Counted from the first letter of the stretch, positions 10,756 through 59,333 are shown. The stretch: DNA of 64,000 bases from Candidatus Latescibacterota bacterium (GCA_965248435.1 OZ252100.1:5248001-5312000); one strand, 5' to 3'. Notes: generated by a model not told the origin, from the letters alone. Numbers and translations are program-made.

Positions 10756-10809
10756 ACAAGACTACTCCGGAGACTCGGTTGATCTAGAATGTTGACTTCG
10801 TGCTACAGG

Positions 10810-11025: not shown

Positions 11026-11652
11026 TCAATGCGCCCGCTGCATTGGACTTTCACCCTTCGCGGGTCGATGGACATTGACCAAACACGCGAGCATACGTGC
11101 CGGTTGAAAGCCCAAGGCCCTCACAGTATGAGGGAGACGGGAATCGAAGTAAATGGAATCCCCGCTGGCGAGGCGATACGTATCCTGATCGATGGTCATC
11201 TCCACTTCCCCCGAGAGGATAAAGTGGAATTCCTCTCCTTCGTGAGACAGTGGTTTAACGTCCTTTTGCTCACTTGGAGGGATTTCAACGTGGAAGGGGG
11301 ACATCACCTTGTCAGTCAGCCGGTAAGCAAGCGCCTCATAGCTGTAGTTCAACGCTGCGGCGGTGTCGGTCTGCGGGTCAACCTTCCACCGTTCCGTGGA
11401 CCGCACGATCTCCACCCTGGCGGTCGGCGGCCCAGACATGAAGAAGTGATTCAAACTCACGCCGAAGAGCTGTCCGAGGTTCATCAACTCTCCAACGGCC
11501 GGCAGCGCATTGCCCGCTTCATATTCTTGGAGCTGATCCTCGGAAAGGCCGCTGGACTCTGCCGCTTCTTCGAGCGTAAGCCCGCTATGATTTCGGAGAT
11601 CGACAAGCTTTTCACTGAGCTGCTGTTTGAACGTTGCCTCGTCCATGTTCAA
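11026..11652 (-). CDS. XRE HTH + cupin transcriptional regulator
   Basis: N-terminal HTH, HEGEEFHFILSG and GDSIYFDSRLPH cupin motifs. Confidence 0.9.
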   Translation of the reverse strand: MNMDEATFKQQLSEKLVDLRNHSGLTLEEAAESSGLSEDQLQEYEAGNALPAVGELMNLGQLFGVSLNHFFMSGPPTARVEIVRSTERWKVDPQTDTAAALNYSYEALAYRLTDKVMSPFHVEIPPSEQKDVKPLSHEGEEFHFILSGEVEMTIDQDTYRLASGDSIYFDSRLPHTVRALGFQPARMLACLVNVHRPAKGESPMQRAH

Positions 11653-44674: not shown

Positions 44675-45267
44675 CTCTTATTTTTTTTTATGACTGCCGA
44701 TTCTTTCCTCGCGGTGGGCCTAACCAGAAATGTGCGAGTATGGTAGGTTTGAGGGGTGCCGAAGTCAATTGAAATTTGGCCCAATTTTAGACGAGTCATC
44801 GCGGTTAGGACCGGGTCTCTCGAGTCCTGAGATCCTTGGCGGTTCGGTCAGTTCTGATCATCAAAGGATGGGGTAAACGGTGCATTTGCGCCATGTCAAC
44901 ACGATTTTGGGTTTTGGGGACCCGAGAGCCTATCCTTGTAACGTGCTCTGAGACTGCATATAACATCATTTTTGGCTCGAATGGTATGCGTTTTGCAATC
45001 TCTGCTAGTGGTTATCCCTTTGCAGGGGGGATCGGAGTTCCTGGCCTTTGACAGCCCCGACCTGTCATTTGCCTCCAAAGACCCGGTTCCCTCTGCTTTT
45101 TCTATTTCACAAGCGAGCGGGCGACTTTAAGCTTGACATCAGAGGGCCAGGAGCGCCATCTTATTTCCATAAGCACGTATGAAAATAAGACTTAACGGTT
45201 CTACTGATTTACCTCCCGACAGCATCACAGTGTCATTCTCAAGTCTAATCTTCATCCAGGACCGGCG

Positions 45268-46680
45268 ATGAAGCGTAAAGCGCAGCGTCCCTCTGCAAGT
45301 GTTTTGGTTGTCGACCCCGATGAAGCGACCAGTTCCGCCATTCAGCGGTTGCTGAGTGCCGATAACCATCGTGTTCGAATCGCGCGCTCCGGAGAAGAAG
45401 GTCTTGAACTGTGCGCCGAGGAGTCGCCCTCTCTCGTCCTCCTGGACATAAATCTTCCCGGAATTGACGGCCTGGAAACCCTGCGGCGGATAAAGGAGAT
45501 GGGGAAGGATTGCGCTGTCGTCATGGTCACGGCTTATGAGTCTGCCTCTACCGTGGTGGGGGCCATGAAGCTGGGCGCAGAGGACTATATTACCAAGCCG
45601 CTTCCGATGGAAGAGCTCCGGGTCCTCGTGGACAAGCTGGTCGGGCAACGTCAACATTACAGACATTCGACGGGCAGAGGTCTGGGAGAGATGGTCGGTG
45701 ACAGTGCTCCGATGCGGCAAGTCTATGACCTGATACGGCGAATTGCGAAGGCCTCGGTAACGGTGCTGATTACAGGGGAAAGCGGGACAGGCAAGGAGGT
45801 GGTCGCGCGGGCGATCCATCAGAACAGCGAACGTCAATCGCTGCCTTTTCTCTCGGTGAGTTGTGCCTCCATTCCTGGAAGTCTGTTGGAGGCCGAGCTG
45901 TTCGGCTATGAAAGAGGTGCGTTTACCGACGCAAAGGCCCGAAAGAAGGGGCTCATCGAAGTCGCCGGAGAAGGCACGCTCCTGCTGGATGAGATCGGGC
46001 TCATGCCCGTCGATCTGCAGGGCAAGCTGCTCAGCGTGCTCGAAACGCGCAGATTTCGCAGGCTTGGCGGGACAGGAGAGTTGTCAGCGCCCGCACGCTT
46101 TGTCGCGGCCACGAACGCGAACTTGGAGGAGGCGGTTAGAGCTGGCGAGTTTCGTGAGGATCTATACTATAGACTGAACGTGATCCCCATTCATCTTCCC
46201 CCTTTGCGAGAACGAGGGAAAGACATCCTCCTTTTGGCTCAGCAGTTTCTCAGAGAGTGCAGCCATCGACACGGCCTGCCGTTACGTACGCTGTCGCCTG
46301 AGTCCCAGACGTTGATGATGTCCTATGCCTGGCCTGGAAATGTCCGCGAGTTGAAGAACGTGATCGAGCGGGCCGTCCTGTTGACTGATGAAGCGGTGGT
46401 AGAACCGTCCGGCCTGGCAATAAACAGACGAGGTCAGGAAGACCTGGAGGGAAGCCCGATCGAGGTTTCGGACGCGGGCATCATTCAGGTCTCTTTTCCC
46501 CCCTGGGGAATTCCCCTGGAGGATCTTGAGCGGCAGGTGATCGAAGAGGCCCTGATTCACACAGAGGGGAACATCTCTCAGGCCGCCAGACTCCTCCACA
46601 TCAGCCGCTATGCGCTCCGCTACAGGATGCAGAAACACGGGATCCCGTTTCCTGAGGAGGGACATCAGGTAGGCGTGTAG
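45268..46680 (+). CDS. NtrC/AtoC-type sigma54 enhancer-binding response regulator (EBP1)
   Basis: Receiver domain, [34 protein letters not shown] and a Fis HTH. Confidence 0.93.
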   Translation: MKRKAQRPSASVLVVDPDEATSSAIQRLLSADNHRVRIARSGEEGLELCAEESPSLVLLDINLPGIDGLETLRRIKEMGKDCAVVMVTAYESASTVVGAMKLGAEDYITKPLPMEELRVLVDKLVGQRQHYRHSTGRGLGEMVGDSAPMRQVYDLIRRIAKASVTVLITGESGTGKEVVARAIHQNSERQSLPFLSVSCASIPGSLLEAELFGYERGAFTDAKARKKGLIEVAGEGTLLLDEIGLMPVDLQGKLLSVLETRRFRRLGGTGELSAPARFVAATNANLEEAVRAGEFREDLYYRLNVIPIHLPPLRERGKDILLLAQQFLRECSHRHGLPLRTLSPESQTLMMSYAWPGNVRELKNVIERAVLLTDEAVVEPSGLAINRRGQEDLEGSPIEVSDAGIIQVSFPPWGIPLEDLERQVIEEALIHTEGNISQAARLLHISRYALRYRMQKHGIPFPEEGHQVGV

Positions 46681-46695
46681 TTACACAGCAGGGAG

Positions 46696-46735
46696 AAAAA
46701 CCGGATGTCCGGAATCAAAGGACATCCGGTTTTTT
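46696..46735 (+). terminator. Intrinsic terminator after EBP1
   Basis: aaaaaccggatgtcc...ggacatccggtttttt. Confidence 0.75.
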
Positions 46736-46796
46736 GTGCCGTGAGTTATCTATGCACAATGGTTTGGGCGATTTAATCGTGAAGACTGTTGAGAAG

Positions 46797-46963
46797 TATA
46801 TGTGTTATATAACACATATACTATCGGAAACTCATGTCTATTCAGGTCGTCCATATATTGATATAATTAATTATTATTATGCATATTTAATAGAAATTAG
46901 CGTTACCATAGCAAAGCCCGATCCTGAAGATTTGTAAGAATATATGTGTGATATAGCACATAT
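46797..46963. promoter_or_regulatory. Two ATATGTG-N8-CACATAT palindromes (TGT-N10-ACA; putative EBP enhancers)
   Basis: Perfect 24-bp palindrome at 46797-46820 and a second copy at 46941-46963. Confidence 0.7.
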
Positions 46964-47106
46964 CCATCATACGGTATCGCTGAAGCCAGGTGAAGGCTTG
47001 ACGGATATCTCAAAGTTTCCCAAAAGGTTCGATTATACTGGCAGAGAGACTGTTACGAATCCAACGGGATGGGTACCCTCGTTGATTTACCTCAAAACTT
47101 GGGTTC

Positions 47107-47122
47107 GGGCACAAAGTTTGCC
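47107..47122 (+). promoter_or_regulatory. Sigma54 -24/-12 promoter
   Basis: gGGCACaaagtTTGCc (GG-N10-GC). Confidence 0.65.
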
Positions 47123-47503
47123 TAGTGTCATCCTCATTCAAAAGCCACGATAGCGGTTTCGGCACAAGACTATGCGCGTTTATATAGGCTGTTGGACGCA
47201 CACCAACGCATTCCTAGCACACACAACGAAAAAGGCAGGTCGGGGCAAAATTCGCGCGGCGCAGATTGCGGTTTGAAGGGTTCATTGCTATCCTATGAGT
47301 AAGGAGGTTCATCCGAAATCATGTAGCCAAAATCCACCTTTGGAATTGGGTTTACCGGCCTGAATTGCGTCCCGGACTCGAGCCAGTGGATGAACAATGC
47401 TAGCCAGATGAGGGCACATAGGGACTGCCCCGAAAGATGTAAGACATTGCCCTGACAGAATTCCCCAATGGATGTTTTCCAACTCCCCAGGAGGTTTTAA
47501 GTC

Positions 47504-48229
47504 ATGAGGTACTGCAAGCACGGCCTGAGCAGGTATATCCTTTACGGCGTTATCTCAGGAATGAGTCTGTTGCTGTTGACCGCGTGCGCGGAACTTACGC
47601 CTTCTCCGCTTTCGCCACAGCAGACAGCCCAACTCGATCAGGCTGCGCTAAGCAGTTCCGGTTCCGTCAGTTTTGTTTTCTCCCCCGGTTCCCCTGATCC
47701 ATCGAGGGCATCGATGCCGGCAGGCAAGCTCGCTGACACGAAGACCGAATCCAGGACGGCCTCGGGGAAGATCACACCGAGACGTGGTGGAAAACTTCGG
47801 GTCAAATTCGATCGACGCGACGACGATGGCGACGATGATGATGGCGACGACGATGATCGTGATGACGACGGCGTTCGAGTCAAAAGTGCGACCTTCGTGG
47901 TGAAACGGGGTTCGATAGAGGAAGCGCACAGGATCAGAATGAGAGTCACTTCAGGGTCTACCCTTGATGACGTGTCGGTGGAATTCACGCCTTCAGGTCT
48001 CTCGTTCGATCCGCCCGCAAGACTCACGATTATCCTTGTCGGCGAGCTGGATGAGGAGGACCTCGAGAACCTCCACGTTTGGCACATCGAAGGGGACAAG
48101 GCCACCGAAGTACCGGTCAAGATTTCGTCTGACGATGATGAATGGGAACTTGTCATAGAAGTGCCCGGATTCTCTTGGTACGATTTGGGCGGGGATGAAG
48201 GGTGTGGTTGGGTTGGATTCTGTTACTGA
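47504..48229 (+). CDS. Lipoprotein with a ZU5-like domain and Asp-rich insert
   Basis: AGGAGG RBS; lipobox LTAC; ITPRRGGKL...VEFTPSGLSFDPPARLTI...VPGFSWY; D-rich tract. Confidence 0.7.
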   Translation: MRYCKHGLSRYILYGVISGMSLLLLTACAELTPSPLSPQQTAQLDQAALSSSGSVSFVFSPGSPDPSRASMPAGKLADTKTESRTASGKITPRRGGKLRVKFDRRDDDGDDDDGDDDDRDDDGVRVKSATFVVKRGSIEEAHRIRMRVTSGSTLDDVSVEFTPSGLSFDPPARLTIILVGELDEEDLENLHVWHIEGDKATEVPVKISSDDDEWELVIEVPGFSWYDLGGDEGCGWVGFCY

Positions 48230-48277
48230 CTGAGCAAAGGCGTCAGCGTTTCCATATTCTAGAAATCCATATCGAGG

Positions 48278-49468
48278 GTGAAAGAATTGCAGATTTCAAC
48301 CATTCAAGCCTTGATCGAGAGACTCTCTGAATTCCGGAGGGAGGAGGAGGTTGACGACCTCCTTCAGAGTATTGTTTCGGAAGCGGCTCCAACGGAGCAT
48401 CATCTTCGACAGATTGAACAGGTTTTGGAAACCTTTGCAGGGTTGGCGGGGGCGGAGCAGCAGGATGCACCCGATCTCTTGCTTACCCTGGGTCGGACCT
48501 ACGAACGGTTGTCACACCTCGAAAAGGCACGTGAAACCTATGAGAAGGCCCTTAATCTGGCCGAAGGTCGCGATGAGCCGGCGTTCGTGGCGATTTTGCA
48601 TTGTCGACTCGGGAGAGTGTTATCCCGACAAGACAGCTGGGATGGGGCCCTAGGTCATCTCGATCTTAGCGAGAACGCGTTTCGTGAACTGGACGACGAA
48701 GGTGGATTGGCCAGAGTGGCGATAAATCGGGGTGTCGTCTTTCACGAGCGTGGGGATTACGACAGAGCAGCGGAACTCTACAGCGAGGCCCTGGATCTTG
48801 CTCGGAAAACTGGAGACAGAAAGATCGTGGCGAACGCCAGCAACAACCTCGCGGTACTAGCGACCATTCGAGGCGATTTGAGCGATGCCGTGGCCCAGTA
48901 TCAGGCCTGCCTGTCCGTCTCCGACCAGCTTTCAGACCAGCGTGTGAAGGCCCGCATCTATTACAATCTGGGCATGACGTACGTGGCTATGAATGACTGG
49001 AACGGAGCAACAGACTGTTATGAACGGTGTCTGGAGGTTGCACAGGAAGCTGGTTTGGTAGATGTCACGGCAAATGTTTACCGTTGCAGGGCGGAGCTAC
49101 TGCTCGAGTTAGGTGATAGCTCGATGGCCGCAACCTGTTGTGCCCGTGCCCTGGAGATTTACAGGGAAACCGGGGACAGACTCAGGGAGGCGGATGCCTA
49201 TAGGTGTCTGGGCAGGGTATTTACGCTAAAGCGGCAATGGAGCGTGGCTGATAGCCTTTTTCAGCACAGCTTGCGTCTGAATGAAGAATATCAACATCCC
49301 CTGGGAGTTGCCGAAGCACGGAGGGATCAGGGGAAGATGCAGATGGCCAGGAACCGCAAGACAGACGCTCGGACGTCTTTCGAAGTGGCCCTCTCCGACT
49401 TCCGTGGGTTGGGTGTGCAGGCGTCGGTCAGAGAAGTCGAGGGTCTACTCGGGACACTTGACAACTAG
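48278..49468 (+). CDS. Tetratricopeptide repeat protein (TPR-A)
   Basis: Repeated A..YNLG..Y...A...Y.RAL patterns. Confidence 0.88.
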   Translation: MKELQISTIQALIERLSEFRREEEVDDLLQSIVSEAAPTEHHLRQIEQVLETFAGLAGAEQQDAPDLLLTLGRTYERLSHLEKARETYEKALNLAEGRDEPAFVAILHCRLGRVLSRQDSWDGALGHLDLSENAFRELDDEGGLARVAINRGVVFHERGDYDRAAELYSEALDLARKTGDRKIVANASNNLAVLATIRGDLSDAVAQYQACLSVSDQLSDQRVKARIYYNLGMTYVAMNDWNGATDCYERCLEVAQEAGLVDVTANVYRCRAELLLELGDSSMAATCCARALEIYRETGDRLREADAYRCLGRVFTLKRQWSVADSLFQHSLRLNEEYQHPLGVAEARRDQGKMQMARNRKTDARTSFEVALSDFRGLGVQASVREVEGLLGTLDN

Positions 49469-49572
49469 CGAGTTTGCGTTTCGTAGCTTTTCTTAGAAAG
49501 CGGCCTACCGGCCGCTTTATTTGCATTGGTTCGGTCTTTCATTTACCAAACCAACTCGTCAGCGAGAAGCTT

Positions 49573-52500
49573 ATGGTGAATGGTGTATTGACTGGAGAAA
49601 AAATCGGGCAGTATGAGGTCCGAGAAAGAATCGGCCAGGGCGCGATGGGCACGGTCTACCGTGCCTGCGATACATCGCTGCAGCGAGAGGTGGCAATCAA
49701 GGTTCTTTCCACGATTGCTTCGCCGACGCCGAGGGAAGTCGAACGATTCTACCGAGAGGCGCGTGCTGCCGCGGGACTGTCTCATCCAAACGTAGTTTCT
49801 GTACACCAAATCGGGGAACACAACGGGGCTTACTACTTCGTTATGGAGCTCTGTGAGGGTGATTCCTTGCGAGAGCTGGTCCGGTCCGGAAAAAGGATGC
49901 CGTGGCGAAAGGGCCTGGACGTCGCGGTCCAGGTGTGCCGGGCTCTCGAGGCGGCCCACGGTCGGGACCTTCTTCACCGGGACATCAAGCCGGACAACGT
50001 CTGGCTGCTCTCGGACGGGCTTGTAAAGGTCCTGGACTTCGGGATCGTCCGCTTTTCGGCCGCGCAGACCCTTACGCAGGAAGGGGACGCGCTCGGGACC
50101 CCGGAGTATATGTCACCCGAGCAGATCCTGGGCGAAGAGCTGGATGCCAGATGCGACGTCTACGCTGTCGGGATTCTGATGTACGAGCTGTTTACAGGCC
50201 ATCCACCGTTTACCGGACCCAACCCGGTAACGATCATCTACAAGCAGATGGAGGAAGACCCCACACCGCCCGGCCAACTCTCCGGAGATCTGCCGATCGC
50301 CCTGGAGAGAATCATCCTGAAGGCGATCTCCAAGGATCGGGCTGAGCGCTATCCGTCCGCTGCCCGGATGCGTGAGGAGATGGAGGCACTACTGGAAGGC
50401 CGGGAAGCGGCGGACGTAGAAACAGGAGAACTTCCGGAAGAAAGGGCCAAGAAGACCGGCATTCGATTTGAATGCCGGCTGGTCGGGCGAGAAGACGAAC
50501 TGGGGTTGCTGAAACAGGCCGTGGATCGTCTTGATTCGGAGGCCGGGGGCTGCGTCCTGATCGGGGGGGAGGCGGGCATCGGGAAGACGCGGCTGGCCGG
50601 AGAGGCCATGGCCTATGCCCGGCGGAAGGGCGCTATGGTCTTTCAGGGATCGTGCCTCTACAGCGATGGACCCGACCCATATGCGCCCTTCATCCAGGCC
50701 CTGGAGGAGGCGCTGACGGCCGGCGACGAGGATGGGCAGAAACGGTTGCTCGCCTTCATTCGAGATGAGGCCCCGGAACTCCGAGAGCTCACTTCGCGGT
50801 TGATGACGGCAATAAACACCCGGCTGACCGGGAACCCGTTCGAATCCACGGAAACAGGGGTCGTCTCCAGGGAGCGTCTGTTCGAGGCGGTTTCGCAGAC
50901 GCTCTTGTTTCTTTCTGGCGAAAGACCGGTCGTGCTGCTCCTGGACGATCTCCAATGGGCGGACAGCGGCACCCTGCAGCTTCTACACTATGTCTTGCGC
51001 TACGCCTCCGAGCGGCGTCTCCTCATACTGGGGACGGTCCGTTCGGAGGACCTGCTCCCCGACAGGGAGGGAGAGGCACATCCCGTCGCTGACGCGCTGC
51101 AGCGGATGAACACGGAAGGTCTTATCCAGAAGGTGGAGCTCAGTGGGCTCGACCATCGCGGCGTCAGCCTGATGGCGAGGTTCATCTTTCGGCGGGCCCT
51201 GTTTTCTTCCGGGTTTCGAGCTTCGCTCTACAAGGAAACGGGCGGGAATCCGCTCTTCGTCCTAGAGGTCCTCAGGCTTCTTCGGGACGAGGGGATCATC
51301 TATGAGCGGAAGGGCATATGGCGTGAGCGGCGTGAGATAACGAGTGAGGATATTCCGGATCGGGTCTATGACGTCGTCGTTCGGCGAATCGAAAGGCTCG
51401 CGGAGAACCAGCGGGAGCTTCTGCAGCTTGCCGCGGTAGCAGGCGAGAGTTTCGGTTCAACGATGCTTTCCAGCATCTCAGGGGAAGAACGGGTCCCCGT
51501 CCTCCGGAAACTGGACCGTATGGAGCGGAAACATCAGCTTCTGCGTTCTGATGGGGAGGCTTACACCTTCAGCCACCCCAAGATCAGGGAGATCCTTTAC
51601 GAAGAAATCTCGGACGAACTGAGGCAGGAATACCACCTCATTTCCGGGAAATATTTGGAAGACCAGGCCGGGAAGGGCGCGAGAATCCCGGTTGGAGATC
51701 TTGCACGCCACTTCTTTCACGGGGGTGTGCCCGAAAAGGCCCTACCCTACCTCATTCGCGCTGGAGATCAGGCCACTCGCATGTTCGCTTTCAGAGAAGC
51801 GCTGGATCTCTACAGGTGGGCGTCTCAGTCGCTTACCTCGCGAAAACAATCACCGGAAACAATCAGGCTTAGTGCTTCGCTGCAATTTAGACTCGGCGGA
51901 GTATGTAAAAGATTAGGGGAAATTGAGGCGGCCCTCGATTACTTAACCTGCGCCGAAAACCTGGCACAGGGCGTGGCTGATCACAGGCTGATGGGGGAAG
52001 CCCAACTTGCCAAGGGGCAGATTCACTTCCGCTCAGGAAACTACGAGCTGGCGACTCAGCAGTACCAAGAATCCGCGAACCATTTCAGATTGGCGGGTGA
52101 TCTGAAGTCCGTCTGTTCAGTGCTTGTCAGTGCCGCTAATATCCCTTTTGAACAAGGAAAGTGGAGCAGTGTAGAAGCGTACTATACTCGGGCACTTGAG
52201 ATTGCTAGAGAATCCAGAGACCGACGCGAGATTGCCAAGATAAACATGAACCTGGGAATTATGGCGAGTATTCGCGGGAACGGGGAACGGGCACTCAAGC
52301 ACTACGAGAAAAGCAGACGAACTTTCGAGAAGCTGAAGGATTGGCAGAACCTGGCCAAGGTCTCCGTGAACGAAGGGTGGTTCTACGCAGGAAGGAAGGA
52401 CTGGCCCCGCGCCCAGCAAGCCTACAACGATGCCCTCTCGATCTGTAAGAAGACACGTAATATCGCGTCTGAGGCGAAGTGCTTCCTGAATCTTGCTGAA

Positions 52501-52887
52501 GTGATGTTAGAAACCCACGACCTCAAGGGTAGTAAACGCGCCTGCTTGAGGGCCCTGGAGATTTTCGATAAGATGGACAATAAGCTGCCGACCGCAGAAG
52601 TTTACAAGACCCTCGGGCAGGTAGCGAGAATCGAGCGTAAATGGGAAGAGGCCCGTACCTATTTCGAGAAAAGCATCTCGATAGGCGAATCTTTAAGAAG
52701 CCCGCAATCCGGAGGGGCTCACCTGGAATATTCCCGGATGCTCAAGGACATGGGCGACTTGAAATCCGCCGAGGAAGAGGCTGAACACTCAGTCTTCTGG
52801 TATGAAAAGATGGGAGCGAAGGAGGAGTTGAAGCTGGCAGCGACCCTGAAGAGGGAAGTCCAGGCCCTTCAAATTGCCTCGAATTGA
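49573..52887 (+). CDS. Ser/Thr kinase - AAA/STAND-like ATPase - TPR protein
   Basis: GQGAMG, VAIK, HRDIKPDN, DFG and GTPEYMSPE; GEAGIGKT, LLLDDLQWAD and TGGNP; C-terminal TPRs; likely start is ATG 49573. Confidence 0.92.
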   Translation: MVNGVLTGEKIGQYEVRERIGQGAMGTVYRACDTSLQREVAIKVLSTIASPTPREVERFYREARAAAGLSHPNVVSVHQIGEHNGAYYFVMELCEGDSLRELVRSGKRMPWRKGLDVAVQVCRALEAAHGRDLLHRDIKPDNVWLLSDGLVKVLDFGIVRFSAAQTLTQEGDALGTPEYMSPEQILGEELDARCDVYAVGILMYELFTGHPPFTGPNPVTIIYKQMEEDPTPPGQLSGDLPIALERIILKAISKDRAERYPSAARMREEMEALLEGREAADVETGELPEERAKKTGIRFECRLVGREDELGLLKQAVDRLDSEAGGCVLIGGEAGIGKTRLAGEAMAYARRKGAMVFQGSCLYSDGPDPYAPFIQALEEALTAGDEDGQKRLLAFIRDEAPELRELTSRLMTAINTRLTGNPFESTETGVVSRERLFEAVSQTLLFLSGERPVVLLLDDLQWADSGTLQLLHYVLRYASERRLLILGTVRSEDLLPDREGEAHPVADALQRMNTEGLIQKVELSGLDHRGVSLMARFIFRRALFSSGFRASLYKETGGNPLFVLEVLRLLRDEGIIYERKGIWRERREITSEDIPDRVYDVVVRRIERLAENQRELLQLAAVAGESFGSTMLSSISGEERVPVLRKLDRMERKHQLLRSDGEAYTFSHPKIREILYEEISDELRQEYHLISGKYLEDQAGKGARIPVGDLARHFFHGGVPEKALPYLIRAGDQATRMFAFREALDLYRWASQSLTSRKQSPETIRLSASLQFRLGGVCKRLGEIEAALDYLTCAENLAQGVADHRLMGEAQLAKGQIHFRSGNYELATQQYQESANHFRLAGDLKSVCSVLVSAANIPFEQGKWSSVEAYYTRALEIARESRDRREIAKINMNLGIMASIRGNGERALKHYEKSRRTFEKLKDWQNLAKVSVNEGWFYAGRKDWPRAQQAYNDALSICKKTRNIASEAKCFLNLAEVMLETHDLKGSKRACLRALEIFDKMDNKLPTAEVYKTLGQVARIERKWEEARTYFEKSISIGESLRSPQSGGAHLEYSRMLKDMGDLKSAEEEAEHSVFWYEKMGAKEELKLAATLKREVQALQIASN

Positions 52888-52959
52888 CAAAAACCAAATC
52901 TGATCGGAATCGTGATCGACAAATAGTTCATTGTGCGTTTCGGACTATGGTTAGTCCTA

Positions 52960-54014
52960 CCCGAGTTCAATAAGGAAGTGCAACACTTAGGGTAGCAACT
53001 GTCCTATCCTAAGTGTATGGGAAACAATTACAAGCATCTTACGATAGACGAACGCGAGCAGATTGCGCTTTGTCGAGCCACTGGTGCAAGCCTTAGAGAT
53101 ATTGCCAAGGCCCTTGACCGGAGCGCCAGCACGATTTCAAGAGAGTTGAAACGTAATCCGTCCCCGATAGCTGAGAGTTACTCGGGCCTCCAGGCTCACA
53201 GAAGGGCTGAGAAACGTAAGCGGGAGGCCGGCAAGCGGAAACGGCTGAAGAATCCGGTTATCCGGCGATATGTCGAGACCAAACTCAAGCAAGGATGGTC
53301 TCCCGAGTTGATCGCTGGGAGGCTTCCCGAGGAGCGTCCGAGCGCGGGTATCAGCCACGAAGCCATCTACCAGTATATCTACGATCCAAAGGTGCACAAG
53401 CAGCGGGATCTGGTTGCTTGCTTATCCCGAGCTCACAAAAAACGAAAGCCGCGGTGGCATACCCGAAAACACCGGGAAAGCCACATTCCAGGCCGTATTT
53501 CGATCGATCGACGTCCCCGTTACATCGAAAAACGGAAACAACCTGGCCACTGGGAATCCGACACCATCATCTCTCGAGAGAGCAAACAGGCCGTTGGCGC
53601 TTGTCTTGAGCGATCGTCGAGATACCTACACCTGGCTAAGCTGGCAAAGAACGGACCCTCGGAGGTCGCCGAAGCGATTAATCGACGCCTTGGGCGACAT
53701 CCTCCCCACATGAGGAAGAGCATCACATATGACAACGGATCCGAAAACGGCCAACATCAACGGGTCAACGAGGTGCTTGGCACCAAATCCTATTTCTGCA
53801 AACCGTTCCACAGCTGGGAGCGAGGCGCTGTGGAAAACGCTATCGGTCTGGTCCGCAGATACCTCCCCAAGAAGACAGACTTCTCAAAGGTCAGCAAACA
53901 CGAGTTAAAGAAAATTCAGAACCGGATCAACAACCGACCAAGAAAATGTCTTAACTTCAAAACACCAGCTGAAGTCTTCAAGTCCAAGTGTTGCACTTAG
54001 TCATTGAATCCAGC
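52960..54014 (+). mobile_element. IS30-family insertion sequence
   Basis: Imperfect ~29-bp IRs (ttcaat....aagtgcaacactt / aagtgttgcactt....attgaa) and CTA direct repeats at 52957-52959 and 54015-54017. Confidence 0.88.
53017..54000 (+). CDS. IS30 transposase
   Basis: HLTIDER, STISRELKRN, WSPELIAGR, GHWESDT, TYDNGSE, WERGAVEN and NNRPRKCL motifs. Confidence 0.95.
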   Translation: MGNNYKHLTIDEREQIALCRATGASLRDIAKALDRSASTISRELKRNPSPIAESYSGLQAHRRAEKRKREAGKRKRLKNPVIRRYVETKLKQGWSPELIAGRLPEERPSAGISHEAIYQYIYDPKVHKQRDLVACLSRAHKKRKPRWHTRKHRESHIPGRISIDRRPRYIEKRKQPGHWESDTIISRESKQAVGACLERSSRYLHLAKLAKNGPSEVAEAINRRLGRHPPHMRKSITYDNGSENGQHQRVNEVLGTKSYFCKPFHSWERGAVENAIGLVRRYLPKKTDFSKVSKHELKKIQNRINNRPRKCLNFKTPAEVFKSKCCT

Positions 54015-54036
54015 CTATTAAATAATAGAGTCTTGA

Positions 54037-54981
54037 ATGAACGAAGTTGATGCGCTTCGGCTGGAGCGGACCGCCCTCCTGGATGAACTCGAAACGATCT
54101 ACCGTCAGGTCGAGGTGGAGTTCTACGCCCGGGGGCGCGAACAGGAGATTACTTACCAGGAGCTGAGAGAGCGAAACAAGGAGCTCCAGAGACGGCTGGA
54201 CGAGCTGCAGGAGACGCAGCGCATGCTGATCCGCTCTGAGCGGCTTGCGGCCATGGGTGAGATGGCTGCGGCGATTGTGCACGAAATTCGGAATCCCCTG
54301 ACAGTCATCCTCGTGAGAACCGAAATGATGCAGGAGCACCGGGACCGTTCGGCGCAGAATCTGGAAATGATTCTAAGATCGGCGGAATACCTCAAAAAGC
54401 TGACCGAGAACGTACTCCACTTCTCCCGCGCCCAGATGGGGGATGCCCGGTCTCTCGACCTCAACGAGGTCGTGTTTGAGCTCGAGGCGTTCGTGAAGCC
54501 GATCGTCAGAAACGTGGAGATGCAGCTGGAGGTCGATCCTGAAATTCCCAAGGTCCTGGCCGATCCGAGCCAGGTCGAGCAGGTCCTGATGAATCTGGTC
54601 CTCAACGCCCTGGACGCCGTTGGATCGAATGGTCAAGTCACGCTCACAACCGGCAGGGGCAGTGTCGAGGAAACGGTGAAGCAAGAGATCGAGGCCAACC
54701 GACCACACAAACTGGCGATCGAGATGCGTGAAAGCGGTCTCGCGGGTGATTTCGCCTACGTCGAGGTCCGTGACAGGGGGCCGGGCATCAGGCCGGGAGA
54801 TCTGGACCACCTGTTCGAGGCGTTTTTTACGACTAAGGAGACGGGGAAGGGGACGGGCCTCGGACTCTCGATCGTCCGCACAATCGTCGCAGAATGGGGT
54901 GGGAATGTCCTTGTTGCCTCTACGGAAGGCGAGGGTACAAGCTTCAAGGTCTTCCTGCCCTGTGTCCGCGAAACTGCGTGA
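54037..54981 (+). CDS. Cytoplasmic histidine kinase without a sensor domain
   Basis: N-terminal coiled coil; IVHEIRNPL, QVLMNLVLNA, DRGPG and FFTTK..GTGLGL motifs. Confidence 0.9.
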   Translation: MNEVDALRLERTALLDELETIYRQVEVEFYARGREQEITYQELRERNKELQRRLDELQETQRMLIRSERLAAMGEMAAAIVHEIRNPLTVILVRTEMMQEHRDRSAQNLEMILRSAEYLKKLTENVLHFSRAQMGDARSLDLNEVVFELEAFVKPIVRNVEMQLEVDPEIPKVLADPSQVEQVLMNLVLNALDAVGSNGQVTLTTGRGSVEETVKQEIEANRPHKLAIEMRESGLAGDFAYVEVRDRGPGIRPGDLDHLFEAFFTTKETGKGTGLGLSIVRTIVAEWGGNVLVASTEGEGTSFKVFLPCVRETA

Positions 54982-55041
54982 GCAACGAGGGTGTAGTCCC
55001 CCGGTGACGCAGACTCCGACCTATTTCGCAGAAGGCTGAAG

Positions 55042-55356
55042 ATGCACGATACATACCCACAAGGTCTTACGTGCAGCATATGCAGCGCCAGCTACCAAGT
55101 CGGAGATCGCTACTGCCCGCAGTGTGGTGAACGGTGCTCCTCCGCCTACGCGCTGGAAGGGATGAGCACGCACAGATCCTTGAATATCCTTGAAATTCAG
55201 TACAGGCTTGGCATGGTCTACTTCAGGAAAGGCGACTATGTAAGGGCTGTCGCTGTCTGGGAAAAGGTCAAGAAGGGGCGTCCTCGCGACAGCAGATTGG
55301 ATGGTATACTGGATGATGCCAGAAGCCGTCTCCAGGAATCCGAAAGGGTTAGTTGA
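55042..55356 (+). CDS. Zn-ribbon + single TPR protein
   Basis: CSIC...YCPQCG; YRLGMVYFRKGDY..A...WEK. Confidence 0.78.
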   Translation: MHDTYPQGLTCSICSASYQVGDRYCPQCGERCSSAYALEGMSTHRSLNILEIQYRLGMVYFRKGDYVRAVAVWEKVKKGRPRDSRLDGILDDARSRLQESERVS

Positions 55357-55357
55357 G

Positions 55358-55735
55358 ATGAACTGTGTTTCGTGTGGACGTCGAAACGGGGAAGATGGAC
55401 GGTTCTGCACGGCCTGCGGGTCGTGCCTTTTGGAGAATGGTTTGGTCGCGCACCTCACCTGGGGCGAAGGCACGGCACAGAAGGAGTATCTCATCTCCGA
55501 AAAGGCGCGCTGTCTGGGCCGGGATGCGGAAGCCGACGTCATTCTTGACGACGATCAGGTCTCCAACCTGCATACCCGGATAATGCTGAACGGGGGTAAA
55601 TTCAAGATTGAGGACCTGGGCAGCCGGAACGGCACCTACGTGAATGGACAGAGGTGTGTGGATGATGAGGAGTTAGAGAACGGTGATTTAATCAAGATTG
55701 GGAGGACCATCATAAAATTTGTGATTTGTGGCTAA
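55358..55735 (+). CDS. Zn-ribbon + FHA domain protein
   Basis: CVSCG...FCTACG; LGR, VSNLH and DLGSRNGTYVNG; start is ATG 55358. Confidence 0.88.
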   Translation: MNCVSCGRRNGEDGRFCTACGSCLLENGLVAHLTWGEGTAQKEYLISEKARCLGRDAEADVILDDDQVSNLHTRIMLNGGKFKIEDLGSRNGTYVNGQRCVDDEELENGDLIKIGRTIIKFVICG

Positions 55736-55789
55736 TTACTAATCGAATCTAAGAACCGTCGATCGGCCGGAGGAGGAAGATCACGCTGT

Positions 55790-57013
55790 CTAATTCCGCT
55801 GTATCATTTGCAGTTTGGTGCGCTCAGTTTTCTCATCGAGGATTTTCTGGGTAACAAGGGCATCATAGTGCGCGCCCAACCTTTGGAAACCTTTTCGAGC
55901 TGTTTCCAAGAGGCTCGAGGCTGCTTCAATCTCTTTTTGTTCAGCGTAGAATACTCCAAGTTCGCGCTGCGCTTCGGCCTCCCCTAAGGGATCTTTGAAC
56001 TGTTGATAAAGGCGCAGGCTCTGCTCCAGGAGGCCCCGTGCCGTTGACCAGTCGCCCTTGTGTGTCAAAAGTCGTCCCAGAAATTTATAGACTTCCGCAA
56101 TGCCGAGAGAATAGTTTGTCTCTCGAAAAATATCGAGTGCCCTTGCGCATAAAGCCGCACCCATTGTATACTCTCCCATTTCTATGTATACAGCTCCTTT
56201 GTTCTCGTAGTTCAGCGCGACCGGGTGCATGTCTCCTCGTTCAAGGTTGATCTCAAGTGCCCTTTCAAAGGCCTCAAGGGCATCGTTCCATCTGTTTTCC
56301 TGCCTGTAGCACATTCCCAGGTTGTGGTAAATCTGTGCGACACCTCTAACGTTCCGCATTTGTTCGTGTAAGGCCAGGGCGTTCCGCAGGTACCCTTTAG
56401 CCTCATCAAAATCCCCACGTATGGTGCCAAGGATTCCGAGGTTCATGGTGACGTCAGCAATAATTGATGTAAGGTTAAACTGCTCCGCAGTCTCCAATGC
56501 TTGCAGGTAAGTAAGCTCCGCCGCAGCATGGTCCCCGCATTTCAGCTTTACGTTTGCCTGGAGAACTTTGCATCGTGTGTAGCCTTCATTGTCGTTCAAG
56601 GACGAAAAAATTTCAGCACTTCGTCGTAAATGTGCCTTCGCCTCTTCCCACCTGGAATGCTTGATCAGGATCGTGGCGATCTTGCGAAGTAGTGTCGCTT
56701 CTGCTGATCGATCATTCAATTGCTTTGCTAGAAGAAGTGCTTCCTCGTTGACGGAAAGCGCCTGCTCATAACAGCTCAAGGTGCGATAAGACTCGCCGAT
56801 ATTCATCAAGGAATTGAGGGTTTCAGACCGGTCCTGACTGCTCCGCAGCGCTATTTCCCTGTGGGTGCTGAGCACCTGATCAACCTTTTTGATCGCCTCT
56901 GCCGCCGAAACGTTGTCCTGAAGGGCTACAGCGAGCAGGGACTCGATGCGCGCCTTCCATTCAGGTTCGGACGGGTCAGGTACAGTCCGTTTGTTATCTT
57001 CATCCTGGTTCAA
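55790..57013 (-). CDS. Tetratricopeptide repeat protein (TPR-B), paralog of TPR-A
   Basis: NLGILGTIRGD, HNLGM, CARALDIFRET and PLGEAEA match TPR-A. Confidence 0.88.
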   Translation of the reverse strand: MNQDEDNKRTVPDPSEPEWKARIESLLAVALQDNVSAAEAIKKVDQVLSTHREIALRSSQDRSETLNSLMNIGESYRTLSCYEQALSVNEEALLLAKQLNDRSAEATLLRKIATILIKHSRWEEAKAHLRRSAEIFSSLNDNEGYTRCKVLQANVKLKCGDHAAAELTYLQALETAEQFNLTSIIADVTMNLGILGTIRGDFDEAKGYLRNALALHEQMRNVRGVAQIYHNLGMCYRQENRWNDALEAFERALEINLERGDMHPVALNYENKGAVYIEMGEYTMGAALCARALDIFRETNYSLGIAEVYKFLGRLLTHKGDWSTARGLLEQSLRLYQQFKDPLGEAEAQRELGVFYAEQKEIEAASSLLETARKGFQRLGAHYDALVTQKILDEKTERTKLQMIQRN

Positions 57014-58044
57014 GATTGGTTCTCCTCAGAACTCTCCAAGTTGCTAACTCGGCGTCTGTATTCACTTGCCTGGATACCGTGTTCGGCCATTCTTACCTGA
57101 AAATACTGCCTCCCGATTCCGCTTTCCCGTGCAGCCCGTGAGACGTTGCCGCCTGCGCAGAGAAGTGCCCGATGCAGGTACTCTCGCGTGAACCACTCGA
57201 GGCTCCGTCTGCGCGCCTCCTTATAAGGATGAGCGAAGATCTCTTCGGGGGAGTCGTCGTCTCTTTCGCCAGATATGTGACCCGGCAGGTCCTCCGGGCA
57301 GATCGATTCTCCCTCGGCGAGAAGGAGTGCCGCGGAGATCGCGTGGGAAAGCTCTCTGACATTTCCCGGCCAGGGGTAGCTGATAAGCTGTCTCAAAGCC
57401 TCAGGAGTCAAGGGTCGTTCTTTGAAACCTTCATCTCTGCATTTGTCCTTGAAATGTTCGATCAGGATCGGAATGTCACTGCGACGATCCCGAAGCGACG
57501 GCAGGTGGATGTGGAGCACATTCAGTCTGTAGAAAAGGTCCTGTCGGAATCGCCCTTCGAGCACCTCGCGGTCGAGGTCTCGGTTTGTCGCTGCAATCAG
57601 TCTTACATCCGATCTTCTCACCCGGGTTTCGCCAACCGGCCTGAATTCCCCCTCCTGGACGAAGCGGAGCAGTTGGAGCTGAAGGTCAGGTTGCAGATCT
57701 CCGACTTCGTCCAGTAGCAGCGTCCCTCCATCGGCGTGCTCGACCATTCCACATCGATTGTCCAGGGCGCCTGTGAACGCACCCCGCAGGTGGCCGAACA
57801 GTTCGCTTCGCGCTATCTCTCGGGATAAGACGCCACAATCTACGACGACGAACGGGCCTGCTGCCCGTGAACTCGCTGCGTGAATTGCCCCGGCAAGAAG
57901 CTCCTTCCCTGTTCCGGTTTCTCCAGTAATCAAGACCGGGAGATCACACTTGGCTGCCAGAATGGCCAATCGCTGGACTTCCAGAATGGCTGGATGGCAA
58001 CCCACGATTGGCCTGTTGGAAGTAGACTCTAAGCTGACTGGCAT
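57010..58044 (-). CDS. Sigma54 EBP lacking an N-terminal regulatory domain (PspF-like architecture; EBP2)
   Basis: [29 protein letters not shown] and HTH; the AAA domain begins ~12 aa after ATG 58044; its stop overlaps the TPR-B start. Confidence 0.88.
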   Translation of the reverse strand: MPVSLESTSNRPIVGCHPAILEVQRLAILAAKCDLPVLITGETGTGKELLAGAIHAASSRAAGPFVVVDCGVLSREIARSELFGHLRGAFTGALDNRCGMVEHADGGTLLLDEVGDLQPDLQLQLLRFVQEGEFRPVGETRVRRSDVRLIAATNRDLDREVLEGRFRQDLFYRLNVLHIHLPSLRDRRSDIPILIEHFKDKCRDEGFKERPLTPEALRQLISYPWPGNVRELSHAISAALLLAEGESICPEDLPGHISGERDDDSPEEIFAHPYKEARRRSLEWFTREYLHRALLCAGGNVSRAARESGIGRQYFQVRMAEHGIQASEYRRRVSNLESSEENQS

Positions 58045-58099
58045 CGTCACGACCCCTTTAGCCCTCGAGCTTTCAAGGTTAACACTCTTGCCATTCCAT

Positions 58100-58168
58100 A
58101 ACAAGAAGGGTGCCAGTAAGTGAAAAAGAGGCAGGTGGAATTGGGCACGTCTATTTAAGTATTTGATC
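58100..58168 (-). promoter_or_regulatory. Sigma54-like promoter plus IHF-like site for EBP2/TPR-B
   Basis: TGGCACccttcTTGT at 58100-58115; GATCAAatacTTA at 58156-58168. Confidence 0.55.
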
Positions 58169-58229
58169 GTAAGATGTTTATTGAAATCATTCGAACGAAA
58201 GCCGGATGTCCGATTCGCATCTTGCGATA

Positions 58230-58272
58230 AAATAAGAAAGGGGCAAATCACCCGATCGGGTAATCTGCCCCT
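58230..58272 (-). terminator. Terminator after the decayed EBP3
   Basis: aggggcagattaccc...gggtgatttgcccct followed by ttcttatttt. Confidence 0.7.
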
Positions 58273-58313
58273 CGTCATTCGACCTTGTTGACTTTAGTGC
58301 GCTTTCATCCGGA

Positions 58314-59310
58314 TTATGTCTGATTGTTCAGGCGGTGTTTCTTCAACCGATACCTGAGTGCATCCCTGGACACGTGAAGCAGCTGGGCCGCCCTTGTAAC
58401 GTTGCCCTTGGCCTCTCTGATTGCTTCCTCGATGAGTCTCCGCTCAACGCCTCCAGGGAGATGCCCCAGGGCGGAAAACTAATTCGGATTTCTCCCAGTT
58501 CGTTCACATCGAGGGAGGCCTGACGCTTCTGCTCTGCAAGTTCCCTTTCTTCTTTTCCGATCGCCAGGTCATCTACGCCTACCAAGTCATTTCGACTCAA
58601 CAACACAACCCGTTCGATCACGTTCCGCAGTTCGCGGACGTTACCGGGCCAGGAATAGTTGCGCATCCATTGCTCTGCACCTTTCGAGAAGCAGTACTCC
58701 TGCTTCTGGTAGCGTAAGGAGGATGTCCTCACCGCGCTGGCGGAGAGGAGGCAGTGGAATGCGGACGACATTCAGTCGGTAGTAGAGGTCTTTACGAAAA
58801 CGACCTTCAGAAACGGCTCGCTCCAGGTCTTCATTCGTAGCGGCAATGAATCTCACATCCGAACCGATTTCGTTTGTTCCACCCAGCCTTCGGAACGTTT
58901 GTGTTTCCAGCACAGTAAGAAGCTTGGCCTGCAGTTCCGTCGGCATCAGGCCGATTTCGTCCAGGAAGAGCGAGCCCCCCTCAGCAGTTTCGAGTAGCCC
59001 CTTCTTGGATATCTTGGCGTCCGTGAATGCCCCTTTTTCGTAGCCGAACAGCTCGGCCTCCAGCAGGGTGGAAGGAATTGCAGTACAGCTTACGGCCACA
59101 AACGGATGGCTTGCGCGGTTTCCCTGGTGATGGATCTGACGCGCAACCATCTCCTTGCCGGTGCCGCTTTCTCCCGTGATCAACAGCGTGGCCGGTGTGC
59201 TGGCCACACGATCCATCAGGTGAAATACCTCCTGAAGAACCGGGCTTTCACCGACGATGCCGTCCAGGGGTCCCAGGCCGTTGGCCCCGGTCGCCTTCTG
59301 ACTGATGGCA
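58314..59310 (-). pseudogene. Decayed sigma54 EBP (EBP3), paralog of EBP1
   Basis: GESGTGKE, GAFTDA and SFPPWGI shared with EBP1. The receiver is deleted, with a frameshifting deletion near 58715 and a second frameshift near 58447 before the HTH. Confidence 0.85.
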
Positions 59311-59333
59311 ATTTGGGATGGGGATGGAGTGAG

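Follow-up and report, generated by a model that had tools for sequence, protein, structure and literature searches.

Do the regulatory genes that lie side by side in a genome of the Latescibacterota, a phylum of which to our knowledge no member has been cultured, form one signalling system, and what would such a system sense and control? The question is raised by a stretch of 64,000 nt from Candidatus Latescibacterota bacterium (GCA_965248435.1 OZ252100.1:5248001-5312000; hereafter the window, with coordinates counted from its first letter). Genes of its island 45268..59310 were called from the open reading frame (ORF) listing and Pfam. The left arm of the island contains, in this order, a gene encoding a sigma-54 activator (enhancer-binding protein 1, EBP1), two palindromes with a -24/-12 promoter element, and genes encoding a lipoprotein, a TPR protein (TPR-A) and a Ser/Thr kinase-STAND ATPase-TPR protein (the kinase), followed beyond an IS30 element by genes encoding a His kinase and two zinc-ribbon proteins, Zn-TPR and Zn-FHA. 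A right arm with EBP3, EBP2 and TPR-B faces it. A preliminary description of this DNA had listed twelve elements, all of which were identified in place by ORF listing and Pfam, and had noted the lack of an enzyme or transporter as output; by the same means, no gene of either kind was found between 44675 and 59333.

In the left arm (44675-55735) we recognise one copy of a seven-gene Latescibacterota signalling cassette. The cassette is real, conserved and unnamed, and its best-supported reading is two-component/sigma-54 signalling of a new type, with Ser/Thr-FHA cross-talk and arranged around a new family of predicted self-cleaving ZU5 lipoproteins.

Recurrence of the cassette in other genomes

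Neighbourhoods in other genomes were compared by classifying their ORFs against the window proteins into seven gene types, namely EBP1-type activator, lipoprotein, TPR or STAND-TPR, kinase, His kinase, Zn-TPR and Zn-FHA. As a single query, the lipoprotein retrieved relatives from 4 of 40 related genomes, and its profile retrieved relatives from 9 of 53 genomes of the order and, at the level of the phylum, from 17 of 168 genomes (14 of 49 genera). The complete set of seven types is present in eight loci of seven genomes (the window, L092, L047, L094, L085, L088, L091 and L102). The locus L092, from a genome of another class, has the identical order EBP1 > lipoprotein > TPR > kinase > His kinase > Zn-TPR > Zn-FHA. 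Four loci from one family of the class (L085, L088, L091 and L102) have the permuted order EBP1 > His kinase > REC > Zn-TPR > Zn-FHA > lipoprotein > AAA_16-TPR > kinase, with the lipoprotein in one or two copies and an AAA_16-TPR protein of about 800 amino acids (aa) without kinase domain. A PP2C phosphatase gene is located 3' of the kinase gene in L085 (3586-4374, minus strand) and L102 (2480-3229, minus strand). Partial sets that reach contig ends were found in L038, L093, L103 and L014. Orthologues of Zn-FHA (E<=1e-15) occur in 10 of the 168 phylum genomes; the lipoprotein is encoded in the same cluster in nine of these, and in the tenth the contig is cut.

Identities to the window fall into two tiers. 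In the G004/G089/G044 tier, the kinase shares 56-62%, the His kinase 53-57% and EBP1 60-64% identity with the window proteins, and in the remaining loci the corresponding values are 33-42%, 37-46% and 47-53%. The same two tiers in all components fit co-inheritance of the genes, as far as this can be judged from identity.

The tie between the lipoprotein and its neighbours was also counted gene by gene. For 54 distinct lipoprotein ORFs, the gene that comes next on the strand when other lipoprotein genes are skipped encodes a TPR protein in 26 cases, a STAND-TPR protein in 12 and a His kinase in 3, with nothing recognisable in 13; a TPR or STAND-TPR gene follows 38 of the 54. Several copies of the lipoprotein/TPR cassette per genome were found (L109, G004, G091). 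Scans of genomes and metagenomes with one peptide pattern gave 6 and 12 loci, respectively, numbers that say little about the range of the family. Seven of the 12 metagenome loci display the same picture, including the succession lipoprotein > TPR > lipoprotein > TPR in L109. The other five are without TPR or kinase partner (L104, of 1.5 kb, and L105, L106, L111 and L113, of 3.3-7.9 kb).

In genome G004, several lipoprotein/TPR pairs are flanked by genes for LuxR-type response regulators and for hybrid His kinases with GAF or PAS domains, and a PspA/IM30 gene is located directly 3' of one lipoprotein > TPR pair. The G004 loci are multi-copy and rich in insertion sequences (IS), with several transposases, one of which interrupts a lipoprotein gene. 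The genomes of L092 (G079) and L093 (G081) are small incomplete genomes of a distant family, with 1.3-1.6 Mb assembled and 61-80% completeness; both loci show the window gene order, and their lipoprotein tails have just 6 residues.

This recurrence is hard to reconcile with the idea that unrelated regulators happen to be neighbours in a genome rich in them. All seven types stand together in the eight loci, Zn-FHA orthologues were found only there, and the promoter enrichment reported below is far above shuffled sequences, although this genome encodes 21 sigma-54 activator domains (with one rpoN), the bare sigma-54 pattern matches the whole window 25 times against 24.6 expected, which is chance, and the right arm has a separate history. 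We regard the chance explanation as refuted for the left arm and give it practically no weight. The preliminary description had taken the gene set for a functional unit and had called for a gene-neighbourhood search, an absence of co-occurrence in other genomes being what would count against the unit; the left arm clearly shows the opposite.

The lipoprotein family and its predicted self-cleavage

The lipoprotein has a signal peptide ending in a lipobox Cys (LLTAC), as expected of a bacterial lipoprotein. Cys28 is invariant in 45 aligned relatives, and 99 of 150 family representatives conform to a crude lipobox pattern. Searched with a profile, a set of 1.84 billion representatives yielded 558 clusters at 50% identity (E<=1e-3), 283 of them at 1e-10 and 83 at 1e-30, nearly all with lengths of 190-260 residues. 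NCBIfam contains no model for the lipoprotein, a profile search of the PDB returned lipoprotein signal peptides as the sole matches, and a word-indexed protein search returned only the query itself. In the 45 sampled relatives no Pfam family rises above noise except for three weak ZU5 matches. In the Atlas, PF00791 is assigned to 50% of the members of a neighbour cluster.

The fold was approached through structure models. A model built from seven sequences gave no Foldseek match at E<=0.001. The AlphaFold2 model from a 45-sequence alignment consists of stacked beta-strands, with pLDDT of 85-98 for residues 81-230, and places Phe223-Ser224 in a turn between strand 213-222 and a short strand 225-228. 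In a Foldseek-independent search the top matches are ankyrin ZU5 domains, with Z-scores of 11.8 (6m3q_E, 124 aligned residues, 3.0 A), 10.7 (3ud1_A) and 10.4 (3f59_A). UNC5b scores 8.6, GAIN domains 7.2-7.9, Nup98 5.8 and the rat NLRP1 FIIND 5.1, and unrelated glycosidase sandwiches reach up to 8.8 in the same search. Foldseek with the deeper model listed ZU5 domains in its top rows, with probabilities of 0.97-1.00 and modest E values of 3e-3 to 3e-2. These models predict that the lipoprotein has a ZU5 beta-sandwich fold, in keeping with its earlier naming as ZU5-like. In the first fold search, residues 83-224 of the model were aligned to Nup98 722-864, ending at position 864, which we take to be the Nup98 cleavage site, and residues 83-223 were aligned to NLRP1 1095-1212. 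The latter alignment ends at the NLRP1 scissile bond (Ser1213, PMC3210808).

The residues needed for cleavage of related domains have been described. In the part of that work concerned with self-cleaving FIINDs, the nucleophile is the second Ser of the SF/S motif (Ser297 in CARD8, Ser1213 in NLRP1), the Phe, as a buried anchor, puts strain on the backbone, the P2 residue ahead of the Phe matters little or is dispensable, and conserved upstream His residues are required (D'Osualdo 2011, PMC3210808). Corresponding positions were counted in 150 representatives aligned to the family profile, 146 of them ungapped over the site. His194 is present in 145 of 150, Phe223 in 146 of 146, Ser224 in 145 (with Thr in 1) and Tyr226 in 139. 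The triplet 222-224 reads GFS in 137, SFS in 6 and HFS, HFT and NFS in 1 each, and is gapped in 4. By its conserved residues, the family appears to carry the full sequence signature of the self-cleaving ZU5/FIIND/Nup98 domains, with Gly tolerated at P2. We infer from fold and motif together that the lipoprotein would cut itself between Phe223 and Ser224.

The lipoprotein resembles PIDD, the FIIND of NLRP1/CARD8 and UNC5CL, and distantly Nup98 and GAIN/GPS, in having a beta-sandwich, an x-Phe-Ser turn before the last strand, a post-cleavage strand that the model docks on the domain and, in the conserved upstream His194, a candidate counterpart of His252/His270 of CARD8. Unlike self-cleaving ZU5 domains with His or Ser at P2, it has Gly at this position in 137 of 150 representatives. 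Unlike PIDD, the FIIND proteins and polymorphic toxins, it carries the domain alone in a lipoprotein of about 220 residues, with 6-37 residues past the predicted cut and no UPA, death or toxin domain. Where the ZU5 autopeptidases of polymorphic toxins go with RHS toxins, it is coupled with TPR sensors and with sigma-54. Bacterial ZU5 autopeptidases have been described, in the sections of the source available to us, in large toxins and surface proteins only (Zhang 2012, PMC3482391). Small ZU5 lipoproteins do not appear in those sections or in the ZU5 part of a second survey (Kaur 2021, PMC8195603).

Beyond the predicted cut, five conserved residues (S-x-Y-S/G-L) are followed by a tail variable in length and composition, the whole piece comprising 6-37 residues. 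All 12 tails linked to STAND-TPR genes are 7-12 residues long and neutral or basic, and tails linked to TPR genes (6-37 residues) are mostly acidic and mostly longer than these. The window lipoprotein has a poly-Asp insert at residues 104-123 (47813-47872) in a loop of the ZU5-like domain, which most relatives are without. A lipoprotein copy of G038 carries a longer Asp run of about 40 residues, located N-terminal to the domain.

Sigma-54 promoters and the leader

The regions upstream of the lipoprotein gene were searched in 18 loci for -24/-12 elements with both GG and GC present and at least 9 of 11 consensus positions. Such elements were found on the sense strand in 11 of the 18 loci and on the antisense strand in 2 of the 18; 500 shuffles averaged 0.3 and never exceeded 2. 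From this enrichment over shuffles, the lipoprotein genes are predicted to carry sigma-54 promoters. An element is present upstream of the lipoprotein gene in G004 too, although no EBP is encoded near it. Because the bare pattern is at chance level in the window, the two promoter calls made there (Table 1) rely on position and on conservation elsewhere and not on the pattern by itself.

Candidate enhancers recur outside the window. In L038, the counterpart palindromes (TGTGTGATATCACACA) occur twice, 138 bp apart, 5' of the lipoprotein gene, and the L038 EBP1 orthologue is 60% identical. An untranslated leader of 380 nt (47123-47503) separates the sigma-54 element of the window from the lipoprotein ATG. 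It contains no lipoprotein remnant and has no repeat or copy elsewhere in the genome, and an Rfam search of 40000-64000 returned one sub-threshold snoRNA match and nothing else. Further downstream, because of the hairpin at 49497..49518 between TPR-A and the kinase start, the lipoprotein and TPR-A may be expressed above the remaining genes.

A second sigma-54-like element, TGGTAT-N5-TTGCA with 2 mismatches, is located at 44982-44997 on the plus strand, about 270 nt 5' of EBP1; this pattern is at chance level.

Cytoplasmic partner proteins

In a 19-residue Kyte-Doolittle hydropathy scan, the lipoprotein alone has a hydrophobic segment, and all other cassette proteins remain below 1.4. In other loci, EBP1 orthologues (47-64% identity) have the gene for the lipoprotein or for the His kinase as a neighbour. 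EBP1 contains GAFTDA (45916-45933), as does EBP3 (59016-59033), and EBP2 contains GAFTGA (57766-57783). TPR-A shares 33% identity with TPR-B and 27% with the TPR region of the kinase. All catalytic motifs of the kinase are present, together with Walker A and B of its ATPase. Full-length kinase orthologues with 28-62% identity were identified in 13 loci; they align from residue 39, which places the likely start at Met34 (49573).

N-terminal to the phospho-accepting His82, the alignment of 11 His kinase orthologues reveals a conserved coiled coil as the only shared feature, which suggests that this sensor-less kinase is controlled by partner proteins. In L085, L088, L091 and L102 the His kinase gene is directly 3' of the EBP1 orthologue. 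Such abutment is the usual mark of a cognate pair and suggests that EBP1 and the His kinase are one. The order His kinase > Zn-TPR > Zn-FHA is invariant, with a REC gene sometimes inserted, and the middle position is in every case that of a Zn-TPR orthologue (29-50% identity). In L102, the REC protein encoded between His kinase and Zn-TPR (10646-11203, minus strand) has a C-terminal double zinc ribbon, and three small proteins of this locus have a zinc ribbon in common.

The right arm

The right arm has a different history from the left. The EBP2 ORF as listed reaches 58278. A sigma-54-like element (58115-58100) lies inside it, and downstream of the element are a ribosome-binding site and, at 58044, an ATG. 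Because the element TGGCAC-N5-TTGT lies inside the longer ORF, the start of EBP2 is most likely this ATG, about 13 residues before the AAA+ core. The absence of a regulatory domain from EBP2 and the pseudogene state of EBP3, both proposed earlier, agree with this short N-terminus and with the two frame changes, near 58720 and 58445, that EBP3 would need.

DNA homology to a genome of the same genus runs from the succinyl-CoA-ligase-like gene through EBP3 and EBP2 (75% identity) and then directly to the cytidylyltransferase gene; this genome has no counterpart of 44650-57050 of the window (12.4 kb, EBP1 through TPR-B). Its EBP3 orthologue (L101) is intact, with 370 aa, no receiver domain, 86% identity in the AAA+ part and GAFTDA, and its EBP2 orthologue is 80% identical. 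We also considered that EBP3 might be 5'-truncated, which was rejected because the intact orthologue likewise has no receiver domain. Since both orthologues are intact in the same-genus genome, EBP3 > EBP2 is a native tandem of regulator-less activators, of which EBP3 has decayed in the genome studied here.

In the TPR tree, TPR-B groups with 100/100 support with TPR proteins from modules of the type regulator-less EBP > lipoprotein > TPR > His kinase in three other genomes. This grouping and the overlap of TPR-B with EBP2 suggest that the same-genus genome lost the EBP1-to-TPR-B block, rather than that the block was gained here. The right arm is likely a separate, older module, in which EBP2 is translationally coupled to TPR-B, its likely partner in trans. 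The convergent island of the preliminary description holds for the elements it contains but not for their unity: they belong to two modules, as the same-genus genome has EBP3 > EBP2 but none of the nine remaining genes. A comparable activator tandem, an EBP1-type one followed by a regulator-less one, adjoins the second cassette of G089.

Layout of the island and its flanks

The features of the island are listed in Table 1. The hairpin 3' of EBP1 has no entry in the terminator scan, whose loop limit is 8. The IS30 element is placed in the spacer between the kinase and His kinase genes and interrupts no ORF. About 31 full copies with 98.7-100% identity are present in this genome (G000). Short-read contigs break at the IS30 ends, and the depth over the element is about 30-fold higher than in the flanks; none of the contigs joins across the element and none has an empty site. 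The copies mark a recent burst, and the window copy is a recent insertion. The flanking genes are housekeeping genes encoding a TPP enzyme, an M28 peptidase, a cytidylyltransferase, a succinyl-CoA-ligase-like protein and ribose-5-phosphate isomerase. Two antisense ORFs, 45139-45837 (minus strand, 232 aa, no Pfam match) and 47638-48156 (minus strand, 172 aa), overlap EBP1 and the lipoprotein gene and are taken as spurious.

Table 1. Coordinates of the features in the island, with the G004 loci of note in the last row.
Feature	Position	Strand	Basis and remarks
EBP1, NtrC-type sigma-54 activator	45268..46680	+	Pfam REC (Asp60), Sigma54_activat (GAFTDA), HTH_8 Fis-type
Terminator-like hairpin with T-run, 3' of EBP1	46701..46735	+	read off the sequence; in palindrome list
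Palindrome 1, candidate EBP1 enhancer, core TGTGT-N6-ACACA	46796..46821	+	
Palindrome 2, ~145 bp beyond palindrome 1	46942..46963	+	
Sigma-54 -24/-12 element GGGCAC-N5-TTGCC (GG-N10-GC)	47107..47122	+	2 mismatches; 397 nt 5' of lipoprotein ATG
Lipoprotein, 241 aa, lipobox LLTAC	47504..48229	+	no Pfam family
ZU5-like domain of lipoprotein (predicted)	residues ~82-228		structure models and fold searches
Predicted scissile bond of lipoprotein, between Phe223 and Ser224	codons 48170-48175	+	family motif
Lipoprotein tail, 18 residues	48173-48226	+	
TPR-A, stand-alone cytoplasmic TPR protein, 396 aa	48278..49468	+	Pfam, hydropathy
Hairpin between TPR-A and likely kinase start	49497..49518	+	terminator scan
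Ser/Thr kinase-STAND ATPase-TPR protein	49474..52887	+	Pfam Pkinase, AAA_16, TPR
IS30-family element	52966..54008	+	1043 bp, 23-nt inverted ends
IS30-type transposase	53017-54000	+	HTH_38 and rve
Soluble His kinase	54037..54981	+	Pfam HisKA (His82) and HATPase_c only
Zn-TPR, Zn-ribbon with single TPR	55042..55356	+	weak Pfam match
Zn-FHA, Zn-ribbon with FHA, 125 aa counted from inner ATG	55358..55735	+	Pfam
TPR-B, TPR-A paralogue	55790..57013	-	Pfam; start overlaps EBP2 stop by 4 bases
EBP2, regulator-less sigma-54 activator, 344 aa	57010..58044	-	GAFTGA present
Sigma-54-like element TGGCAC-N5-TTGT	58100..58115	-	1 mismatch; -12 GC reads GT; 5' of EBP2
Terminator, 16-bp stem, between EBP3 and EBP2	58238..58273	-	terminator scan
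EBP3 pseudogene, regulator-less activator	58343..59333	-	frameshifts near 58720 and 58445; no start codon before AAA+ core
PspA and regulator neighbours of lipoprotein/TPR pairs in G004	L012 4899-5579; L011 7604-8293, 16492-17193	-; +, +	

Proposed mechanism and its alternatives

We consider it probable, with considerable room for doubt, that the left arm is a sigma-54-driven signalling cassette around a self-cleaving ZU5 lipoprotein which operates in the following way. The soluble His kinase would phosphorylate EBP1 at Asp60, and EBP1 would bind both TGTGT-N6-ACACA palindromes and open the sigma-54 promoter. This promoter would drive lipoprotein > TPR-A > kinase > His kinase > Zn-TPR > Zn-FHA, so that the circuit would feed back on itself. 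The lipoprotein would be exported, lipidated and self-cut between Phe223 and Ser224. The STAND Ser/Thr kinase, switched by its TPR sensor, would make phospho-Thr marks, which the Zn-FHA adaptor together with Zn-TPR would read to set the output of the His kinase. The invariant adjacency of the genes leads us to infer this link between Ser/Thr and His-Asp phosphorylation. In the least certain step, the freed or tethered tail peptide might be the cue for the TPR sensors (TPR-A, the TPR region of the kinase and perhaps TPR-B). Hints of it are the lipoprotein-TPR adjacency, the way in which tail type tracks partner type, and a weak charge anticorrelation. Confidence falls from the His kinase-EBP1 loop through the lipoprotein self-cut and the kinase-FHA tuning to tail sensing.

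Several observations weigh against this mechanism. Concerning the promoter, 7 of the 18 upstream regions are without a good -24/-12 element, and the distance from element to ATG is 397 nt in the window and 449 nt in L091, with 39-184 nt in the other nine loci. The genome G004 has the whole set except the EBP, and no EBP is encoded within 75 kb. EBP1/sigma-54 control is not universal, and sigma-54, to which the preliminary description linked the cascade, is not obligatory, as the G004 pairs stand behind LuxR-type regulators. The IS30 element may be polar on, or uncouple, the three downstream genes (His kinase, Zn-TPR and Zn-FHA). As for the lipoprotein, Pfam ZU5 (PF00791) does not match the window protein at E<=1 and matches 3 of the 45 sampled relatives weakly (best E 0.0028). 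The best structural match, ankyrin ZU5, is not known to self-cleave. In the model, the conserved S-x-Y-S/G-L forms a strand docked on the domain, which suits a piece staying bound. Tail sensing meets further difficulties. The stand-alone TPR proteins have a median net charge of -16 (n=23), unsuited to acidic tails, and the correlation of tail charge with the charge of the kinase TPR region (Spearman rho -0.59, nominal p 0.036) is a weak one among 13 related loci. The sensors are all cytoplasmic, and among the genes of the cluster there is none for a membrane-spanning receptor or a peptide importer, which leaves a periplasmic peptide without an evident route to these sensors.

Part of this evidence would suit a lipoprotein that is an output only, namely an envelope protein whose self-cleavage is maturation, with the STAND kinase and the TPR proteins sensing an unrelated cytoplasmic cue and the adjacent TPR protein acting as relay scaffold or pre-export chaperone. 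All sensors being cytoplasmic, with no importer or transmembrane kinase in the cluster, the docked S-x-Y-S/G-L, as for a piece remaining bound, and the acidity of the stand-alone TPR proteins, shared by many tails, all agree with it, and one G004 operon runs on into PspA, an envelope-stress protein. In the same available sections cited above, bacterial ZU5 autopeptidases are the processing domains of surface proteins and toxins (Zhang 2012, PMC3482391). An output role alone would leave unexplained, however, the regular succession of lipoprotein and TPR or STAND-TPR genes, including tandem cassettes (L109), the match of tail type to partner type, and the provision of seven dedicated regulators for a single-domain protein of 220 residues. 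We judge it unlikely, though a contender to be taken seriously.

The signalling cassette with tail sensing can be extended to peptide signalling between cells. The host phylum is expected to be diderm. In such a diderm system, the lipoprotein precursor would free its own C-terminal peptide by means of its ZU5 domain, with the self-cleavage chemistry by which NLRP1, PIDD and adhesion GPCRs are armed in animals, and cytoplasmic TPR receptors would act through FHA and the sensor-less His kinase on sigma-54 autoinduction. The multiple lipoprotein/TPR cassettes per genome would then be separate pherotypes. This extension is speculative and we hold it to be doubtful. Its closest parallel is RRNPP-type peptide quorum sensing of Firmicutes (Rap/Phr, NprR, PlcR/PapR, PrgX), in which the importer need not be genetically linked. 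As in RRNPP systems, the gene for an exported precursor adjoins a gene for a cytoplasmic TPR protein (38 of 54), the C-terminal peptides are short and variable, and there are several cassettes per genome. Unlike RRNPP precursors, the lipoprotein would process itself without secreted proteases. The TPR proteins, unlike those of RRNPP systems, have no HTH or phosphatase domain and are stand-alone or fused to a STAND ATPase and a Ser/Thr kinase, with a His kinase and a sigma-54 activator as the route of output. The AimR model of NCBIfam, whose cut-off is 70, scored 19 bits (E 5.8e-4).

Comparison with known systems

PADLOC returned no system-level match, and the lipoprotein, the His kinase, Zn-TPR and Zn-FHA had no PADLOC match of any kind. 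NCBIfam likewise gave nothing above cut-off, and no literature on this cassette was found among open-access papers and preprints. These searches bear out the earlier statement that the gene set is not a described system. Kinship with the PEP-CTERM system (PrsK/PrsR/PrsT), raised by sub-threshold NCBIfam matches, was rejected, as the cluster has neither a PEP-CTERM tail nor an exosortase.

The preliminary description had also considered an NLR-like defence role, and the loci have features that recall a conflict or anti-phage system in which the STAND kinase would sense an invader and the ZU5 lipoprotein would be a self-cleaving effector or decoy. The kinase combines STAND ATPase, TPR and kinase domains, the distribution is patchy (17 of 168 genomes, 14 of 49 genera) and excludes the same-genus genome, and the G004 loci are multi-copy and IS-rich. 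ZU5 has been tied to STAND-based death pathways of animals, with bacterial conflict systems named as their source, in the ZU5 part of Kaur 2021 (PMC8195603). The PADLOC matches, however, are at domain level only, to the kinase domain (PD-T4-6, MAD6) and the AAA+ core (RtcR/PspF). An effector of the nuclease, pore, protease or NADase kind is missing from every locus examined, the EBP and the sigma-54 promoter plainly make transcription the output, the gene order is stable at class-level distance, which is unusual for defence islands, and the flanks are housekeeping genes. With no effector and no match to a defence model, we find a defence role quite improbable.

Each part of the cassette has known counterparts among bacterial regulators. 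As in NtrB/NtrC, EBP1 has the architecture REC-AAA+-Fis-type HTH, abuts the His kinase in four loci and is accompanied by paired palindromes, a -24/-12 element and rpoN. EBP1 and the His kinase display the defining features of an NtrC-type sigma-54 two-component system, and phosphotransfer between them is predicted. Unlike NtrB, the His kinase has no sensor domain and only a coiled coil; EBP1 has GAFTDA, not GAFTGA, and no NCBIfam equivalog is reached at cut-off. PspF and the HrpR/HrpS tandem are regulator-less activators. EBP2 and the EBP3 orthologue resemble them in having no N-terminal regulatory domain, for which reason control in trans is expected, and in standing in tandem as HrpR/HrpS do. 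They differ from these in that no PspA or HrpV gene adjoins, TPR-B is coupled to EBP2, and EBP3 is dead in this genome. The NCBIfam model TIGR02974 (pspF) scored 224 bits against a cut-off of 443.

The Ser/Thr branch may be compared with TagQRST-PpkA-PppA-Fha1, the Thr-phosphorylation pathway of type VI secretion. In both, genes for a lipoprotein, a Hanks kinase and an FHA reader cluster, and some cassette loci also have the PP2C phosphatase. Unlike in the type VI pathway, there are no secretion-system genes, the kinase is soluble and fused to STAND rather than membrane-spanning, and the output is transcription. MalT and AfsR are STAND transcription regulators with TPR-like sensors. The kinase protein resembles them in carrying AAA_16 followed by a MalT-like TPR region, and ligand-gated oligomerisation is its expected switch. 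Unlike in MalT and AfsR, the effector is a Ser/Thr kinase and not a DNA-binding domain, and AfsR-type NCBIfam matches are far below cut-off.

Biological meaning

In animals, innate immunity and adhesion-receptor signalling have self-cleaving ZU5, FIIND and GAIN domains as central switches. The cassette described here would present a minimal ZU5 lipoprotein family, with its 558 clusters, wired to dedicated cytoplasmic sensors and a sigma-54 switch. Read conservatively, it offers a compact natural case of a single operon that combines signalling by Ser/Thr kinase, FHA, His-Asp and sigma-54. Should the tail peptide act as the signal, peptide quorum sensing through TPR receptors would extend beyond the Firmicutes, with a precursor that needs no processing protease.

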